Below are positions 1 through 17,529 of a stretch of 64,000 nt of DNA, in pieces; position 1 is the first letter of the stretch; each line of letters starts with the position of its first letter. A program made the translations under genes and the position numbers. Origin of the DNA: Podospora anserina (taxonomy: Eukaryota); contig CM030336.1 in NCBI GenBank assembly GCA_017654855.1, forward strand, positions 4,836,001-4,900,000, read 5' to 3'. The notes beneath the pieces are model-generated. The model searched no databases and was not told where the DNA came from. It saw nothing but the letters and a program-made list of their open reading frames with translations.

Positions 1-660
1 CCAGCTTATGCAAGGTGTCAACCGAGTGTTGACGAACCAGCATATAAGACTGATAGAATAGCAAATGCAACATTAGATAAGCGGCCAAAAAACACCAGTT
101 CCATGGAGATAAACCTCATGAGCTCTACATTTGTCCTACCACCCCGCTCCTGAGGCGTGGTCTAGAGACAATAGGCACTGTCGTGACACCCACCATCAGA
201 ACTGAAATGCCGGCTAAGAGCTCAATCCCACGTTGTGGCTGCCAAGAGACCCTGTCAATGCTGCTGACTGCAGATGTACCGTAGAAATTAATCCCGGTAT
301 CAGCATTGGCTGCCGGGTAGCGAGTGAGCAGGTCCTATCGGATGGACTCCTCATAGGGCCGACAGTACGAATTGCCACACTGAGTGCCCATTATCATACA
401 CTATCGAGTTGGAGATGGCTGGGCGGCAAGACCCTCGCAGAACCGAAACTCTCAGTGGCACCCAACCAACGTGGAGGCATCATGAAGAACTTGCATGTGC
501 TTACATGGACTATTGGATGGTGCCCAAGATGCGCGGGCCAACATCCTGGCAGGAGAAAAAGTTGAGATTGCGGCAAGCATAAATAACACAAGCTCCTCGC
601 GGGAATTGTTCAGACAGAGCTTCCACGGCACCTCGTCCCCAATCTTCACACACAGCCACC

Positions 661-2033
661 ATGAAGCTCCTCACAGGCTACCTTCTCCTCCAAACTGCCG
701 GCCTAGCCACGGCTCTGCCCCCCAAGCTCGAGGACTTCAAGCAAAAAGCAATCGACTCCGGCGTCGCCCTCAAAGCCCTCAATGGCATCGCCCTCGCCAA
801 AGCCCTCACCAAATTCAGCGGCACATGCACGCCCTCCAAAGTGAAATACCGCCGCGAATGGCGCACCATCTCCAAGCCCGACCGCAGAAAATTCATCGCC
901 GCGGTCAAGTGCATCATGGCCAAACCCAGCACGCTCCCTCCGGAGGAAGTCCCCGGCGCCAAGTCATTATACGATGACATCGTCTGGGCCCATGCGCGAA
1001 GAAGCGGTCTCGTTCACAACAGCGTTCGCTCCCCTTCTCCTCCGCCCCCCTTTTTCCCACTTTACTAATCCTCACAGGGAACCTTCCTCCTCTTCCACCG
1101 CTACTACCTCCACACCTACGAAACGGAACTCTCCGCCTGCGGCTGGACCGCAGGGCTCCCCTACTGGGAATGGGGCCTCGACATAACCGGGCCCCATCTC
1201 TCCCCCATCTTTGACGGTTCCGACACATCGTTAGGTGGTGACGGCGAGTTCATCCCTAACCGCCCCCCTTTTTCAATCCCTTGGATCGACCCCCTCACAC
1301 CGGAAATCATCATCCCACCCGGGACGGGAGGTGGATGCGTCAAGACAGGTCCGTTTGTCCATCATAAAGTCAGACTTGGGCCGTTCAACATGACAGAGAC
1401 GTTCCCTGTCGAGCCGGAGGATGGGAGGGGGGATAATGAGAGGTGTTTGATTAGGGATTTGAACAAGGGGGGGATTGAGAGGTGGGCGAGTTTTAGGAAT
1501 AGTACTGAGTTGATTTTGGGGAGTGGAGATATCTTTGAGTTTCACGTCAATGCTGTGAGTGCTTCTGACTGGATTGAAAGGTACCGGGAAGGGGGAGTGC
1601 TGCTGACATGCCGGGTGATATAGGAAGGGGATCCGAGATGGGTACCGACCAAGCCGATGGGTGTTCATGGTGGTGGGCATTCGTCGATTGGTGGGGTGGG
1701 CGGGCATGCTGCTGATCCGGTTATTTCGCCGTATGATCCTGCTTTTTGGTTGACGCATGGGCAGTTGGATAGGGTTTATTGGATTTGGCAGATGTTGGAT
1801 TTGGAGAGTCGGAGTGTGAGTTCTGCTGAGCGGAGTCGTTTGTTGTGTGATATGAAAACTGACTTGGCTTCGGACAGGACGTCTTTGGGACTGGCACGTG
1901 GCTCAACATCCCGCCTAGTCCTAATGTTACTGTGGAAGACAGCATCGATGTGTTGCCTCATCAGCCGCCGAGGAAGTTGAAGGAGTTGATGAGTACGGTT
2001 GCGGGAAGCCCGTTCTGTTTTGTCTATGTGTAA
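661..2033 (+). CDS. Secreted tyrosinase / di-copper centre protein (3 introns)
   Basis: Signal peptide MKLLTGYLLLQTAGLATA and RREWR motif. CuA: AH..VHNSGTFLLFHRYY. PYWEW. CuB: GVHGGGH...DPAFWLTHGQLDR. Introns 1024-1077, 1555-1623 and 1816-1877 join the ORF pieces, ending ...PFCFVYV-TAA. Confidence 0.9.
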
Positions 2034-9567: not shown

Positions 9568-10088
9568 TTTGACTGTCAGGCAAGCCAATTATTTGAAAGT
9601 TGATGGATAGGTACAGGTATCCCTTCGGGAGGTAAAATGGGCGGAGTTTAAGAATCATGACTTTTGGACCCCACCCAAGTTCTCCCTCATCCGACCACAT
9701 TTGACCGCTATCCGAAACGAAGACAAAAATGTTGCATGGCTTCGGAGGGAAGGTGGGCTGCACAGATCGGAGTCGAAGAGTGATGAACTTGAGACCATGA
9801 GATGTGAGTGGCTATAGTATCTATCTAGTGTAACCACATCCAAACACTACACCATGCATGTAGTATGCGGGCCGAGCCACATTATCGTCGGATCATTGCA
9901 TCTCTTCCCGCCCGAGTGCCGAAAGGAGTACGTAACCGATCAGACGTACGATGATACGCCTGGCAGGTAGACTCTCACTTCCCGGTTTGCCTAGCCTGAA
10001 CCTGGTTGGGTATGCCAACCCCCCGTACCTGTATGAAGCGATGGCGGTGGCCCAGAATGGATTCAATGGAAACCGCAAGGTAAGGCAC

Positions 10089-13000
10089 CTATTCCAGTGT
10101 CACCACTTCCAACACCCCCACCAACCTCTTCCACACAGCAGCACTCTCCTCATCATCCCCATTTGTCAACGTTCCCCTATTCCCAATCACAACCAATCCC
10201 CTCCTGGCCCTCGTAAGCGCGACATTCAACCTCCTCATATCCGTCAAGAACCCAATATCCCTCTTCTCATTACACCTCACCGTCACAAAAACAACCACGT
10301 CCGCCTCCCTCCCCTGAAAAGCATCAATACTGCTCACCTCCACCAACCCCGACCCCATAACCTGACCCAACACCCGTTTCAGCAAATCAACTTGCTTCGC
10401 ATACGGCGTTAAAACCGCCACAGTCTGGCTGACCCCTTTTTCCCCATCAGCAGCAGTAGCCAAAAGCGTACAAACCCCCAAACAAACCCCCGCCTGCCCT
10501 TTATTTACTTTACTTTTCCCCTCCACCTCCTCCCGATCAGCACACTCAACCCAAACCCCCCTTTTATCCCGCATTGGCCACGAAAACCCCGTCTTTTCCA
10601 ACCCCCTCTCATTGTCCCTCAATCCGGTAATCAACCTCCCTCGGTAAAACTCTGTAGAAGGGAAGTCACATAACGAGCTGTGCATCCGGTACTGCGTGTC
10701 GAGCATCAACCTCCCGAAACCCTCCCCTCTGGAAGAGGTGAACAGCCTCTCAAAAAGGGAACAATCACCCCCCAGAGTCACAACCTCCGGCCTCACGGTC
10801 GGTCTTAGTTGAACGTGATCACCCACCAAAACAGCCCTTTGACACCCCTTTACTAACGGCACGAGGGCGCACCCCTCTGTCTGCTGGGAGGCTTCGTCTA
10901 TGATGACAATATCAAACATTTCATTCCTTAACAGTCCCAAACTTGAGCCTATGCAAGTCGAAAACACGATTTTGGCAGCCTTGACACGTTTTTTGGCTTT
11001 GGTGGTCTCGGCGCGGGAGTGGAGGGTGTTGAGTTCGATTCCGGCCATTGCGTCGAGGGTGTAAGGCGTGACGTCGGGGGAGACTTTACGGATTTCGGTA
11101 GAGATCCGCAAGGGGGGGTGGGTGGGGTTAAGGGAGAGGTACCGCCGGAGAACGTTATCTACCGCGTTGTGGGTTGGGGCTGTGAGGAGGATGCGGGAGT
11201 CAGGGAAGTGGGATTGGAGAGACAGGATGATGGAGAGGATGGTTTCTGTTTTGCCTGTTCCCGGGGGTCCCCAGAGGCATAAAAGGGGAGTGGTGAGGGA
11301 GGTGGAGACGGCGAGGTTCTGGGAGGGGTTGAGATGGGGGTAGGGGCTGACGCTTTCCGGGGGAGGGGGAGAAAAGGGTTGGGATTCAAGGCCGAGGAGG
11401 TAGGGGGATATGGGACAGCACTCGTCTGATTGGGTGGCAAAGAGGAGGATAGCGTCAAGGGTTGTTTTTGCGGTTGTGAAAGGGGTGCAGTAGGTGAGTT
11501 TCCATTGACAGTGGGAATAGTATGGCGGTAAGGGGTGGAAGCACTGGAATTTTGCACGGCCGGGTTCGGATTGGAGGACGAGGGCGTCGATGGAGTAACG
11601 TTTCTCGAGGAGGGAGTTTGCGGGCGCTGAGGCAGCGGTTAAACGGACGTGGGCGGCGTTGTCGAGCCGGGCATTGTCTGAGTCGATGCGGAAGCTTACC
11701 TCGACGACTTGGTAGCCGTCTTCGTCTTTGTCGAGGAGGTGTAACTTGAGGAGGTCTTTTCTTGGCTCTGACTTTTCTGAGGCCTCTCCGATGTGTTCTA
11801 GCGCTGTGGTGATCAAGTTTCGGACAAAGTGGTTGACGGCAGCTGGCCGACCGGGAAGGAGACGCGATGCTTCGGGCTCGAAACACTCGAGTAGAATATC
11901 CATTGCCACTTCTGGTATTCTGACCGTCAATGAGATCAGTCTGACAAGCTCGGCGAACTGGTGCATTGATAAGACTTTGATACGTGAGAGATATGACTTG
12001 AGGGGGGCGACAACGAGTTCTTTGGCATCGTTGGCTGAAAGAATGAACCCGGTGAGGACTTCTTGGGCGTATGCTTCCAAAATGTCTACCAGCTCTTCTG
12101 TCTTCTCGTCAACAGCCTCGATGGGCGGCATCCTGCCAAAGGCAATAGCCAGTGATGGCGCCAGGCGTAGGAAACCAAGCATCACGCGGAGAATATCCGC
12201 CGACGAGACTCTTGTCAGAGGGCTAGGTTCGTTGCTGCTAATGCCCAGCAAGAGATAATCAAAGCACTTGAAGAGAATGAGACTTTGATCCCTGTCCAGC
12301 AACCAGGAAAACAATTCCTCAAACTGCTTCGGCGACGTCAATTCCCTCATCCAAGGCAGCTTTCCATCCTTTGCAATCGCGACAGTAAAGTCCGGCTCAG
12401 AGCCCCAGTCAACATCCTTCAAGGTCGGAATGGTGTATTCTTCCGCCTCCTGGTCAAACAGCGGCAGTGTTGTATCCGTGTCGATATGCTCAAGCCACAA
12501 GTCGAGATTCCTCATTGACTTGACGTCTCTGTTGCTGATAACGTAGACCTCGGCGGCTGTCACTGCATTCCGGTTCACTCTGCCGATATGTCGCTGCAGA
12601 CCCCTGCTGAACTTGTCGAGGGCGATACTGGCACGGAAGTCAACATTGGTTCCGGAGTCGATGGTCGCTTGGCGTTGTCTTCGCTTGTCGCCTTTGTTTT
12701 CTGCGGCCCTGTAGGAGCTGTCGTCCGAGGGGCTGCGGTTGATGAAGATCCAGGTGTTTCCACGCTGGCCTTCAAACAGTTGAAACTGTCTCTCGTCGCA
12801 ATACAGACGGTATGTCATCTTGGTGGGAAGGGTCATACGGCTCTGCCGTTCAGTGCCCTGGGTGTGAGGAAAGGCAAATAACCGCACAGTGTCATCGACA
12901 AGGGAGTCTTGGGATGTCTCAATCTTGCGGGGAACGTAGATGGCTACGGTCAAACGTTCGTCGACTTGGAGGATGATCAGCTTGCGGTGAAATGTTTCCA

Positions 13001-15319
13001 GTGCTTTGCTGGTAGTATCAAGAAATGTCCCCAGACGGTCCCTCGTTGAAGAGTTGTAAATGCACTTCCAGTGGATGCTGTGATGATTGAGTTGGAAACG
13101 GCGAGCAGCATCTTCCGTAATGAGACTCGAGTAGGTCACCGCGTTTCTGACCAAGGCAGGAACTTCTTGTGAGGGTGGCATTTGCTGCAACACCCATGCC
13201 TTCTCATGGTCTGTCAAGACATTAAAGTCAAAGTAGTCCAGAAAGTCTTCCAAATGGGCATTGTTTCTGCGACACCACGTTTGAGTCATGCAAATATACT
13301 CAAACTCCGACATGGCGAGGTTATCTCGGTTGAGGAGCAGCTCCAGAACGTCATGGTCATAACCATCGAAAACATTGCGATGAATCTGAGCTGTGTCCTT
13401 GAGAATAATCTGCTTGGCGGCCTCATGTAAATCATCAAGAATAAACGGTGGCGCATCCCGGGGGGGGTCGGGTGCCTGTTCCAACTTGGGAGGAATTCTG
13501 ATGATGGTCCCGTCCACACACTGAGAGAAAAGCCGGTTCAGCTCCTGACACTCTGGTGCCATGGGCCCCCGAGCACGAGCCCAGGCCAAGTAAAGCTTCT
13601 TGACTCGCCCAAGAGACATGTTGTTGTACTTGGCAAAATAAACAAGCCGGTCGTCGTCGGTGATGGCTTTGAAGCTGATCGCTTCTCTGGCACCTGGATA
13701 CTTGGCGGGTTCCGACATGGTCGAGGGAATCACACTTTTATCCCAGCAGACGAAGACTGTTGTCCCTGTTAGCGTCTCTATAGCAACGTTAAGGGGGGCG
13801 ACTCCACCCAAGAAAACATACAAGTATCACCATCCAAATCACCCCCAGACATCAGATCCGCCGCTGGTCTTCTGCCCCTCGAAGAAAAGACAATGCAATC
13901 CGTCAGATGCGCCAGCTCTGGTCTTTCAACCACTCTAAACTTTTGCATATCTCCCGGGTGTAAACACGGGTTCCTCGTCACCAACACCTCCATCCCTTTC
14001 AGCGCCGCCGGTTGGCCATCCTCGAAAAGGGTGACTTTGACTGCGCATTCTCCCTCCTTGAGACAATCCCAAGCATCACACACCCCAAACAGCAGCCTCG
14101 ACTGCGGGATCAAGATTCGACATTTTTGATCATCTCGTTTGTTCAACATCTTGCCGTATTCTGCCTTGACGAGCGCCTTGACTTTGGATTGGGCGTGCTC
14201 AACGTTGTCTGCCATTAGGATTTTCTCCGCCATTTCAGGCATATTGGCATAAGACAAGAACCTAAACGCAGCTCGGGGGTCTCTGGTAGCTTCTTCGAGA
14301 AACTGGAAATGTTCGTTTTGCTTTTGATGAAAGGTTTTGTGTGTGATGCCAAGGGCGGAGAGAAGGAGGATGGACTCGTCGTTGAGATACCCGTAGGTGT
14401 ATGGTTTGGAGTACTCGACGACAGAAAAGGAGTAATCGTCGCCACCAGAGAACTTCTTCATCGATTTGCGCAGCTTGAGCCAGATCGGAGGGGCGTCGGA
14501 GCTCTTGTTTTTTGGTCGCGGCATGGTCTGATCGACTTCCACAACGCCCTTGTAACCGCGGTAGCGTATTTGGAACACGGACGGGGTGTAGCGTCTATTG
14601 CGAAAGATGATTCGATCACGTCTTGCCAGTTCCCGCGCGAGATTAGGTGAGATGAGGCCGCAGCCGTCGGTAAAGATGTAATCGGCTGTCTCGATATCGG
14701 GGATGTCCTCGACGCGTTCGGGCGGGATGAGCATTGCTACCGATCCGGTAGAGAACAGGAGACTTATACGCTTGGCCTTTTTGGCAACTGTCTTCATTTT
14801 CGAAAAGTCGCCCAAGTCGTTGACCTTACGGGAGATCTCCTCGGGTGAACCGGCATAGAAAAAGCAAGTTCGGGATTTGAGCTGGCTGTTGCTGTGGCCG
14901 TAGAAATTGTAGTGGACACCTTGAATGGAGATGCCGGTCCTGAGGAGTCGAATAGCGTAGTCGGTACATTCTCGGGGCGTGGATGGTTGAAGCGAGTCGT
15001 CTGTGGATGTTGCTGCAGCAGAGCGGGGTGGTCGTCGTCCAGGCGGAGCACGCAGCTCGGCGATAGAGACGACGAGGAACTTGTTGAGTGGCTCGCCGCG
15101 GATAGCTCGATTGTCTTGTGCCTTGACCAGGGTGAAGTTGATTTCGTGCTTGCCACCGGTCATGACCAAGCTCACTGTTTTGATGAGTCGAGCATTGTCG
15201 AGCTTGTCGGGCCCGGGCAGGTTGGGGATGGTGTACCTCCATTCTCGATCATCTAACCTTATCCAGTCCTGGAGTTGGTGTTTGAAGCTTGCAAGTTTGC
15301 CACACATGGCAGTCGACAT
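10089..15319 (-). CDS. Eukaryotic RNA-dependent RNA polymerase fused to a C-terminal Upf1/NAM7-like SF1 helicase (~1720 aa, 1 intron)
   Basis: RdRP motifs: HSNSQLK, FTDGCGLIS, FQIRYRGYKG, LRKSMKKF, RNPCLHPGD, SGGDLDGD. Intron 13757-13821 (GTATGT..GCTAAC..CAG) gives DLDGDTFFVCWD and joins the 1244-aa ORF. That ORF carries the helicase motifs LNPSQ, GPPGTGKT, APTHNAVD, IIDEASQ, GDHVQLRP, SLFERL, QYRMH, TPYAKQ, DAFQGRE and RLNVALTRAR. Start taken at the first ATG (15319). Confidence 0.9.
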
Positions 15320-15683
15320 CCTTGGGAGGGAGATGTAGCGACAACAAGAAAAGAACTGGCGTCTACTGAAGGCAGGTCGAGGGCACAGGTGCTGGGTTTT
15401 GAGGAGGGGCAGGCCACACAAGAGCAACTAAACTGTCGGAGCTGGATCTCGCAGTTGATACGTGCCCGCACCTCCTGCAGCAGGCCTCAGTGCATATCTC
15501 ACCTGACTGGCTCAAAGCGCCGATTTTCGACCATCCCTTACATCAAAGATCATCGAGACGAGTACCTACATCACTTTCAGCTACCAGCCACATCTATCTC
15601 CACGTCGTTCCAGCATCGAAAGCCTGGAAAAAGTCCATCAAGCACAGTCGACTATCTACAGTTGAATTGCGCCCTACCAAACA
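15320..15683. promoter_or_regulatory. Probable bidirectional promoter between RdRP-helicase and P-loop kinase genes
   Basis: Only 364 bp separate the two divergent start codons. No specific element was identified. Confidence 0.4.
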
Positions 15684-16328
15684 ATGTCCCAACCACCAAA
15701 CATCTACATCATCGGCGCTCAATGCACAGGCAAAACAACCCTCGTCAAAAACCTCCACGCCAATTTTGAGTCCAACTCCTCCCATGAACCGCCAGTCCTG
15801 ATCACCGAAGTCGCCCGCACAGTCCTCAAGCAGCATTCCTTCACAGCAGCCGACGTCATCAACCCAGACAGAAGCATCCAGCTCCAAAGCCTGATCCTAC
15901 AAGCACAAGCCTCCACCGAGAGACAAGCCACCCAAACCGGGCAATGGTTCATCTCCGACAGATCAGGAGCCGACCCAATCACCTACGCCTTGCGATATGT
16001 AGAAGAAGGACGAGCCAACCAATTGATCCAGTCGGATGAATGGCGGGAACTGAGAACAAGGATGCAGGACGCGGTTGTGGTTGTCTGTGAAGCTAGCGAA
16101 GAAGCGCGGAGCTGGCTTGCGGATGATGGGGTTAGGTTGATGCCGGAGGATGTGGATGATTGGATTGCCATGCACAGGGTGTTTTGCGAATTCTTGCAAG
16201 ATCAGGAGATAAATTTCCAGGTCTTGCCTGCTTGGGTTGGGGATCATCAGGAGAGGGTTGAGTTTGTGTTGCAATGTTGGGATTGTAAGAAAGAAAGGGG
16301 TCCACGGTGGGTGGTAACTGATTTCTAA
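15684..16328 (+). CDS. AAA_28 (NadR/Ttd14-like) P-loop nucleotide/nucleoside kinase-like protein
   Basis: N-terminal Walker A IYIIGAQCTGKTTL, followed by EVAR, FISDRSGADPITYA (DR motif of NMP/dN-kinase-fold proteins), DDGVR and ERVEFV. Intronless, 214 aa. Confidence 0.8.
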   Translation: MSQPPNIYIIGAQCTGKTTLVKNLHANFESNSSHEPPVLITEVARTVLKQHSFTAADVINPDRSIQLQSLILQAQASTERQATQTGQWFISDRSGADPITYALRYVEEGRANQLIQSDEWRELRTRMQDAVVVVCEASEEARSWLADDGVRLMPEDVDDWIAMHRVFCEFLQDQEINFQVLPAWVGDHQERVEFVLQCWDCKKERGPRWVVTDF

Positions 16329-16350: not shown

Positions 16351-17529
16351 CTATACACCATAGGCAGCGACAAGTCTCGCTCGCTCAGCCGCGGTACTAT
16401 GGCAGTTAGTCGATGTTGGAACGGACTGATCTAGGAATGGGACACTCACATAGGAGTTACGTATCCGTGCCTGGGATTCTTTGGCAGCTTTGCGTTCTTG
16501 ACGACCGTCCACTTGCCCTTGGAAATATCGTTTGTTGTGAATGGAAGGTAGCCGCCGTCACCACGCATGTAGTCGTCGATCCACAGATGCCACTGTCTCA
16601 AAGTTAGTAGAGCCCCCTCTCTGTGCTTCCTCACAGTGACTGACTGACCTTCTTCGGATCCCTGTTATCCCTAAACACCAACGGTCCCTCCCCGGCCGGC
16701 ATGCCTCCATCAGCACCAATCCTTTCGCTAACCGTCTTCCACGGCCCCTCCGGACTGCCCGCCACATTCTGCTGAATCAACTCATCAGGCCCATGCTTAC
16801 TAAACCAGTAGTACTTCCCCGTCTCCCCCTCCAAAGCAATAGTAGCATCCATCCCCAGCCGATTAAACTCCTCCGCCCGTGTAAACGTCTTGAAATCCTC
16901 CGTATGCGCCTTCATAAGCACAAGCTGACTATCCAACTTGCTCGTGAAATAAACCAAGAACTTGTTCTTGACCGGATCCCAAATCGCGTCCGGAGCCCAA
17001 GCCATCGCTGCTTCAGGGGGAGCCACCGTCTTGAACATCGGCCCGGTCCATCTCGCGAGATCGTTTGATTCCCAGACGTGGATAGACTTTGATCCGTTGC
17101 AGGTGTAGCAAGTCCCATTGTTCCAGCCGCGGCCCCAGACTTTGAGGTCTGTGGCGAGGAGCCAAAACTTGGACCGGTCGGGCGCGATGATGAGAGATGG
17201 GTCGCGGATGCCGCCCATGCCGAGGGAGGTGGTTAGGATGGGGTCACCTTTGTTGAGGGTGGTCCAGGTGGTTGGGTCGTTGTTGTTGCTGATGGCCATG
17301 TAGACTTGTTCGCCGTCTGGGAGGCGTTCGCCGGTGAACTGGGTGCTGTAAGCATTCTGGTTAGCTACATGGGGGAGAGGGGGGAGGGGACATAGGTGTA
17401 GAGGTAATCTGTGAAGTTGGTCGCTGGAGCTTGCCGCGCTTCAGGGCTGTGGTGCTGTAGGGCTGACAGTGGTGTGCCCTGTGCTACATGGGCAGCTGCT
17501 AGAATGATGGAGCAGATGATGTGACGCAT
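16351..17529 (-). CDS. Secreted glycoside hydrolase family 43 protein (3 introns)
   Basis: Signal peptide MRHIICSIILAAAHVAQG. Motifs FTGE..GEQVYMAIS, GIRDP, ATDL, WAPD, EGP, WIDD, RHG. Introns 17339-17391 (weak GTCCCC donor), 16593-16648 and 16397-16449. Ends ITAAERARLVAAYGV-TAG. Confidence 0.85.

Follow-up and report, generated by a model that had tools for sequence, protein, structure and literature searches.

A conserved head-to-head gene pair in Pezizomycotina joins an RdRP5-type polymerase-helicase to a small AAA_28 kinase

In the RDRC of fission yeast (Rdp1-Hrr1-Cid12) and in SAD-1/SAD-3 of Neurospora, an RNA-dependent RNA polymerase (RdRP) is paired with an RNA helicase of the superfamily 1 (SF1) type, the two being separate proteins. 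Both systems are named in PMC11237814. An RdRP+helicase+AAA architecture was described in 2015 for the Fusarium graminearum protein FgRdRp5 (FGSG_09076), which groups with plant RdRPs according to PMC4515635. Deletion of FgRdRp5, published in 2024, lowers ascospore discharge and the accumulation of exonic small interfering RNAs (ex-siRNAs), and the same paper places Fgrdrp5 on a separate branch (PMC11237814). FgRdRp5 is dispensable for TRISS, the sexual silencing induced by tandem repeats, according to PMC12366691, and PMC6396948 mentions a candidate RdRP of amphioxus that has an AAA_12 domain. Here we analyze a stretch of 64,000 nucleotides from Podospora anserina (assembly GCA_017654855.1, contig CM030336.1, positions 4,836,001 to 4,900,000 of the forward strand; hereafter the window), in which a gene for an RdRP fused to a Upf1-like helicase (hereafter the fusion) stands head-to-head with a gene for a small AAA_28 P-loop kinase. 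We found that this pair keeps its head-to-head arrangement across at least three fungal classes, amid neighbors that change from lineage to lineage.

The fusion resembles RDRC and SAD-1/SAD-3 in that an RdRP is paired with an SF1-type helicase, here within one polypeptide. In contrast to RDRC, the Podospora locus has no nucleotidyltransferase, and its third element is a kinase of apparent small-molecule type. The closest relative of the fusion in the literature is FgRdRp5. FGSG_09076 (P0055) aligns with it colinearly, at 57% identity over residues 47-540 of the exon 1 open reading frame (ORF; P0002) and at 49% over residues 18-1244 of the exon 2 ORF (P0001), which covers 99% of the exon 2 part; for comparison, the exon 1 part is 81% identical to its Triangularia counterpart and 57% identical to FGSG_09076. 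Both proteins contain RdRP, DEXDc/AAA_11 and AAA_12 regions and have similar lengths, that of FgRdRp5 being close to 1721 amino acids. Alignment identifies the fusion as the likely ortholog of FgRdRp5, and as a fusion it is already known. An earlier note on this DNA had set it apart from the characterized RdRPs, which does not hold, since its orthogroup was published in 2015 and a member was knocked out in 2024. Among the matches listed, more than 100 full-length fusions of 1650-1800 amino acids come from Sordario-, Leotio-, Dothideo-, Eurotio-, Lecanoro- and Pezizomycetes. RdRP5-type enzymes are present in most Pezizomycotina lineages sampled; they are the least understood fungal RdRPs, and none from Neurospora is among the best 120 matches listed. 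The literature searched, paper supplements aside, makes no mention of a kinase neighbor of FgRdRp5 or RdRP5, and neither FGSG_09075/09077 nor Pa_5_10390/10400 occurs in any paper searched. Within that scope, the conserved kinase partner appears to be new.

Table 1. Features of the locus in window coordinates.
Feature	Position	Strand	Description
Fusion exon 1	13822..15319	-	ATG 15319..15317; most of the RdRP domain, preceded by the N-terminal region; stops just past DLDGD
Fusion intron	13757..13821	-	65 nt, GT..AG
Fusion exon 2	10089..13756	-	End of the RdRP, 700-aa accessory region, Upf1-like SF1 helicase core; stop 10091..10089
Fusion accessory region	11334..13436	-	TLDc-like beta-rich domain, ARM-like helical domain and beta-barrel, as read from an AlphaFold2 (AF2) model and Foldseek
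Spacer between start codons	15320..15683		364 bp from ATG to ATG; putative bidirectional promoter
AAA_28 (NadR/Ttd14-type) P-loop kinase gene	15684..16328	+	Single exon, 214 aa
GH43-like gene (outside the module, convergent)	16351..17299	-	Pfam Glyco_hydro_43, 1.2e-6 (under the Pfam cut-off)

The earlier note had reported two intact genes on opposite strands, correctly in coordinates, sizes and spacing (Table 1), and had proposed that they form one unit that should also be found linked in other genera. We found that this linkage is widespread. An AAA_28 gene stands within 2 kb of RdRP+AAA_11/AAA_12 genes, in divergent orientation, across orders and classes (34 of 38 metagenome loci and 17 named species). 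In the named species, which are Sordariomycetes and Leotiomycetes, the two genes are annotated neighbors as read from locus tags or accession order, an indirect measure. NCBI accessions are consecutive in 11 of 12 same-assembly pairs (Triangularia, Cladorrhinum, Podospora australis, Staphylotrichum, Dichotomopilus, Hypoxylon, Glarea, three Trichoderma and Diplogelasinospora). Neighboring tags, given as fusion/kinase, are found in Madurella fahalii (09680/09679), Thermothelomyces fergusii (199/198), Cudoniella (g9545/g9546), Oculimacula (5359/5358), Colletotrichum orchidophilum (14096/14095) and P. bellae-mahoneyi (510400/510390). Searches with the window kinase and with a Nectriaceae ortholog both returned AAA_28 proteins of about 200 amino acids from fungi that carry the fusion.

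Linkage was read directly from DNA in JGI metagenome contigs, which we scanned with an alignment of 22 kinase sequences. This gave 57 loci, 53 of which had a kinase match at 1e-5, and 38 were testable in that they had a kinase match and at least 600 bp of upstream sequence. An RdRP-helicase gene lies upstream of the kinase on the opposite strand in 34 of the 38, with extrapolated distances between the two start codons of 185-616 bp. These 34 loci fall into 22 groups at 90% nucleotide identity (hereafter lineages). Their best matches in a panel of 39 species belong to Sordariales, Xylariales, Glomerellales, Leotiomycetes and Dothideomycetes (Pleosporales- or Venturia-like), and two loci, L022 and L038, represent deep unplaced lineages with only 48-53% identity to any panel member. 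Chance adjacency, or an artefact of annotation or assembly, has a negligible probability: we found no support for it, and although locus-tag and accession order are indirect, the direct DNA of 34 loci from 22 lineages, all in one orientation, together with the window itself, already refutes it.

The pair could persist as part of a larger conserved block. As a flank control, the window and 12 representative loci were compared with one another after masking of the pair (78 comparisons, tblastx at 1e-8). No flanking gene was common to any two loci in these 78 comparisons, the sole match being a repeat mutated by repeat-induced point mutation (RIP) that is shared by window positions 18-23 kb and locus L002. 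Thus, the pair is an island of synteny and not a piece of a conserved block. The earlier note had also proposed a comparison of the two gene trees. Built for 17 species, the fusion and kinase trees have 7 of 14 splits in common, compared to a maximum of 3 in 2000 label permutations; this agreement, which the species tree alone would give, fits joint vertical descent of the two genes. We also considered the pair as a mobile cassette and rejected this, since identities drop with taxonomic distance and the trees are broadly congruent, so that vertical descent is the simpler account. Neurospora and Sordaria are in neither gene's best 120 matches listed, though other Sordariales fill both lists, a pattern that is possibly consistent with joint absence of both genes.

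The fusion is encoded by two minus-strand ORFs (10089..13823 and 13778..15427) that overlap at a short intron. Its coding sequence (15319..13822 joined to 13756..10089) comprises 5166 nt and 1721 amino acids, the same length as the annotated P. anserina protein PODANS_5_10400, a fellow member of its 90% cluster. At the intron borders, DLDGD is followed by GTATGT...ACAG and then by F-F-V-C-W-D from exon 2. RNA evidence was taken from contigs of four RNA-like runs (X1, X3, X11 and X12) from four studies, which we treated as RNA because they contain splice joints in the fusion and two more in a neighboring gene; uncovered stretches in X11 and X12 carry no evidential weight. The splice joint 13756>13822 is present in contigs of all four runs, which indicates that the intron is real and that the fusion gene is transcribed.

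We found that the Pfam RdRP family (PF05183) matches exon 1 at 1.4e-101 (341.5 bits) and continues on exon 2 at 4.1e-10, and exon 2 also matches AAA_11 (1e-39) and AAA_12 (1.1e-50). The motifs DLDGD, GPPGTGKT and DEASQ are all intact, and the columns of the catalytic motif (DLDGD plus F-F-V-C-W-D) are nearly invariant among 28 sequences. DxDGD is the catalytic motif of eukaryotic cellular RdRPs. Judged by its domains and motifs, the fusion is a cellular RdRP joined to a Upf1-like helicase of class SF1B, and it is predicted to synthesize RNA on RNA templates. Of the solved structures, NAM7/UPF1 comes nearest to the helicase part (1.6e-57), and the RdRP part matches plant RDR2 at 7.2e-47 and QDE-1 at only 1.1e-15. 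Together with the separate branch published for Fgrdrp5, the weak QDE-1 match hints at a clade apart from QDE-1, SAD-1 and RRP-3. The accessory region between them (701 amino acids) contains no Pfam domain at E<=0.01. Its AF2 model has a mean predicted local distance difference test (pLDDT) score of 83.4, and Foldseek matches it to Upf1 (2xzp, E 3.5e-4), SETX (8fth) and Aquarius, with a beta domain that resembles the TLDc domain of NCOA7 (7obp_F, TM by target 0.62). The likeness to Upf1/NAM7 includes the helicase core as well as the beta-barrel and helical parts of the accessory region, which are like those of Upf1, SETX and Aquarius. Upf1 proper has an N-terminal CH zinc-knuckle domain that binds Upf2. 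We rejected the fusion as Upf1 proper, since it has no CH zinc-knuckle Pfam match at E<=0.01 and has TLDc-like, helical and beta-barrel parts ahead of the helicase; names given to its homologues in the sources, for example 'NAM7-nonsense-mediated mRNA decay', reflect similarity-based annotation alone.

Several smaller observations concern the fusion gene and its homologues. One X11 contig skips 297 nt of the helicase core (10307-10603, minus strand), in frame and with non-canonical CC..CC ends, and in the other three runs the contigs are interrupted between about 10335 and 10617; an isoform, a repeat or an artefact of assembly could account for this. At positions 9800-10335, the depth of RNA contigs is several-fold above that of the fusion body in X11 and X12, which suggests another transcript overlapping the 3' end of the fusion. 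A plus-strand ORF at 9951-10412 matches no Pfam family. In the sequence comparisons, the fusion filed as Monosporascus sp. GIB2 (P0082, Xylariales) behaves like a Pleosporales sequence and the one filed as Lasiodiplodia mahajangana (P0031, Dothideomycetes) behaves like a Xylariales sequence, and these misplacements could be contamination, mislabelling or transfer.

The second gene of the pair encodes an AAA_28 protein (PF13521, 5.1e-29, 102 bits compared to a cut-off of 27). In the alignment of 22 kinase sequences, 39 columns are invariant, and the window kinase has all 39. These include GAQCTGKT (Walker A, with K17), E42, R45, D92-R93-S94 and D148-V150-R151-L152-M153-P154 (DDGVRLMPE). The roles of K17, DRS and R151 as P-loop, DRx and LID-type arginine are assigned by analogy. 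The AF2 model of the kinase has a pLDDT of 91.1. In an exhaustive structure comparison, its top matches are ribosylnicotinamide kinase (RNK) domains of NadR, 8x7f_A (Z 18.8, root-mean-square deviation 2.5 A over 180 residues) and 6gye_A (Z 17.6), and the next are thymidylate kinases (TMPK) and deoxynucleoside kinases (dNK) with Z of 16.7-14; Foldseek finds the same kinase fold. The nucleotide- or nucleoside-kinase fold that the earlier note had named is thus borne out, by NadR RNK at Z 18.8, by TMPK at Z 16.7-15 and by the invariance of the catalytic-type motifs. Taken together, the motifs and the NadR-RNK/TMPK/dNK-like fold of the model make the kinase look active.

The NadR RNK domain (8x7f, 6gye, 1lw7) is the best structural match, belongs to the same Pfam family and has in common with the kinase a P-loop and a W-x-x-DG-x-R-like motif. 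At the level of sequence the match to NadR is marginal (E 0.008). Unlike NadR, the kinase is a stand-alone protein of 214 amino acids, without an NMN-adenylyltransferase or helix-turn-helix domain, and we rejected its identification as NadR proper given this single domain and a TIGR01526 score of 16.6 bits compared to a cut-off of 341. Several sources name homologues 'nicotinamide riboside kinase', by similarity only, and PADLOC and NCBIfam returned only generic or sub-threshold matches for the kinase. No polynucleotide 5'-kinase is among its 50 best structural matches, which favors a small-molecule acceptor; one kinase with a tRNA-bound substrate is present (PSTK, Z 11.6), far below the small-molecule kinases. 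From these models, the substrate is probably a nucleoside or a nucleotide-like small molecule rather than RNA ends, and we rate a Clp1/PNK-like role as a polynucleotide 5'-kinase below it.

Two long proteins were found among the best 150 of 956 profile matches, a 455-amino-acid AAA_28 protein and a model with P450 and AAA_28 domains. The latter (P0413, 674 amino acids) contains a cytochrome P450 (8e-75) and a C-terminal AAA_28 domain of the kinase family, and is either a genuine fusion or the product of merging gene models. In the ESM Atlas, phages and bacteria are the source of the nearest non-fungal AAA_28 clusters, a finding that we take as a lead only. A complex prediction for the kinase and the 701-amino-acid middle of the fusion scored 0.00; it was made without controls and weighs neither way.

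We next turn to the spacer. Since the start codons lie only a few hundred bases apart, one short bidirectional promoter would most likely drive both genes and switch them on together. The RNA contigs of X3 end at 15334 and resume at 15542, those of X12 and X11 resume at 15550 and 15616, and those of X1 run through, which at most hints weakly at a core of about 200 bp that is not transcribed. Of the 22 lineage spacers, 13 contain a heptamer, GTTACAC, often as CGTTACACAA (L002, L003, L004, L008, L014, L022, L028, L029, L031, L034, L036, L049 and L053), and 12 of them carry it in one orientation with respect to the kinase. Shuffling 200 times gave at most 7 spacers, a comparison in which related lineages inflate the observed count. 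This heptamer may be a shared promoter element. On the kinase side, contigs cover the gene in all four runs. The depth there is uninformative on the kinase, because its 3' end overlaps the convergent gene similar to glycoside hydrolase family 43 (GH43): the stop codon of the GH43-like gene (16353..16351) is 23 bp from that of the kinase, and the 3' untranslated regions of the two genes must therefore overlap.

Our data are consistent with an old divergent gene pair of Pezizomycotina that would be held together by selection, one gene encoding a RdRP5-type cellular RdRP fused to a Upf1-like RNA helicase and the other a small NadR-RNK-like P-loop kinase. The kinase would act in the same process as the polymerase-helicase, which in Fusarium is the Dicer-dependent production of exonic siRNAs during sexual development, and it would probably do so by phosphorylating a nucleoside or nucleotide-like small molecule. 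We infer co-regulation, a shared pathway and this class of substrate, and we give such a co-regulated unit an even chance of being correct.

The same arrangement could arise if the two genes were locked together by their promoter and shared no pathway, with the kinase serving metabolism, for example in the salvage of nicotinamide riboside or nucleosides. We hold this as a tentative alternative, below an even chance. Against it, adjacency and orientation outlast all other neighbors through at least three classes, Neurospora and Sordaria are missing from both lists of best 120 matches, and sibling species with a broken kinase model have no fusion protein in the 90% cluster (a weak, annotation-based point). 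The promoter lock gains from a spacer that is short everywhere (185-616 bp), from the fact that the closest structures of the kinase (NadR RNK, TMPK and dNK) are metabolic small-molecule kinases, and from the naming of its homologues as nicotinamide riboside kinases. Most Fusarium may also retain the fusion while having no close ortholog of the kinase, as judged from the best 120 matches listed, and the best 150 of 956 profile matches include no fused form. Even if there is no functional link, the pair remains a clean case of synteny locked by a promoter.

Several observations weigh against a co-regulated unit with a shared pathway. No level, strand or co-variation can be read from the RNA contigs, and those over the kinase gene merge with the mRNA of the convergent GH43-like gene. 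GTTACAC is not in the window's own spacer (15320-15683). No protein in which the kinase is fused to an RdRP was found in the best 150 of 956 profile matches. Both gene trees would track the species tree anyway, and in the twelfth same-assembly pair, that of Xylaria nigripes, the models are three accessions apart and the RdRP model is truncated. Four of the 38 testable metagenome loci have no RdRP: L041, with an N-truncated kinase copy that lacks the P-loop and stands beside a NACHT gene; L047 and L052, with fragmentary kinase copies; and L026, a short contig. In L026 the kinase lies at 1880-2500 and its neighbor at 400-1767 (minus strand) matches only the middle of the fusion (residues 456-803 of the exon 2 query), with no space for an RdRP domain; this neighbor may be a copy in decay or a relative that lacks the RdRP.

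Fusarium adds to these points. Many Fusarium species carry the fusion, and with the Nectriaceae kinase as query the only Fusarium entry among the best 120 listed is a F. equiseti/flagelliforme cluster (51% identity, rank 119). FgRdRp5 differs from the Podospora fusion in that no close F. graminearum AAA_28 ortholog is among those 120. FgRdRp5 may operate without this kinase, or other Fusarium orthologs may rank just below the best 120. Sibling species of P. anserina also have degenerate kinase models (P0143, P0193 and P0124 form the sibling set): that of P. pseudocomata has 130 amino acids, that of P. pseudopauciseta has 123 and T18M in Walker A, and the P. comata kinase has C135F and M153I at family-invariant sites. 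The named proteins in the 90% cluster of the fusion are from P. anserina and P. bellae-mahoneyi only, with none from P. comata, P. pseudocomata or P. pseudopauciseta. This pattern could mean joint decay of the two genes, which would support their coupling, or decay of the whole region. Overall, Fusarium and some sibling species of Podospora may have a looser pairing.

In vertebrates, viperin and CMPK2 form a head-to-head pair. The Podospora pair is likewise divergent, with one gene encoding an enzyme of nucleotide-kinase fold, and the earlier note read it by this analogy as a co-regulated antiviral or anti-transposon unit, its kinase supplying or altering nucleotides or RNA ends for the polymerase-helicase. 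We consider such a module, inducible and with a kinase acting on nucleotides or RNA 5' ends, improbable. Besides the head-to-head arrangement, it could draw on the helicase core, which resembles the Mokosh defence protein MkoA (1.4e-85 in PADLOC, a match that is generic for Upf1-like helicases), and on the RIP-mutated repeats in the window. The Podospora locus differs from viperin-CMPK2 in that it has no radical-SAM domain and the partner of the kinase is a polymerase-helicase; no viperin-like or other effector gene stands beside the pair, whose neighbors are the GH43-like gene and ORFs without a family. The published FgRdRp5 phenotypes are developmental, affecting ascospore discharge and ex-siRNAs (PMC11237814), and FgRdRp5 is dispensable for tandem-repeat silencing (PMC12366691). 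The presence of PSTK (Z 11.6) and of no polynucleotide 5'-kinase in the top 50 structures also speaks against modification of RNA 5' ends, and the pair behaves as vertically inherited, core-like content and not as a variable island. From the interpretation in the earlier note, the conserved linkage and the kinase fold thus stand, the view of the fusion as uncharacterized falls, and viperin-CMPK2 serves as an analogy only.

A stronger form of the co-regulated unit is that the kinase serves the RdRP5 machine as its third and obligate activity, kept since the ancestor of Sordario-, Leotio- and Dothideomycetes, which would make a special initiating or signalling nucleotide (e.g., one related to nicotinamide mononucleotide (NMN) or NAD, or otherwise non-canonical) or would gate the polymerase by nucleotide supply. 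We regard this stronger form as rather unlikely; if true, fungal RNA silencing would have a new branch, set apart by a small-molecule step of its own. Even the weaker form, a kinase that shares the pathway of the polymerase-helicase, would give an RdRP pathway a step carried out by a small-molecule kinase, and no such step appears in the literature searched. A partner kept head-to-head through at least three fungal classes amid reshuffled neighbors is the type of signal that exposed pathway components elsewhere.

The surroundings of the pair in the window include RIP-eroded repeats, as the earlier note had described. Three AT-rich blocks (18-23 kb, 31.8-33.3 kb and 48.9-51 kb) have a GC content of 0.23-0.32 and RIP-type indices, with TpA/ApT of 1.2-1.5 and (CpA+TpG)/(ApC+GpT) of 0.3-0.6; these dinucleotide indices are not found in the fusion or kinase gene. 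The GH43-like gene downstream of the kinase has minus-strand introns at 16397-16449 and 16593-16648 in RNA contigs. The 18-23 kb block has protein-level similarity to the flank of metagenome locus L002, which indicates that it belongs to a transposon family.

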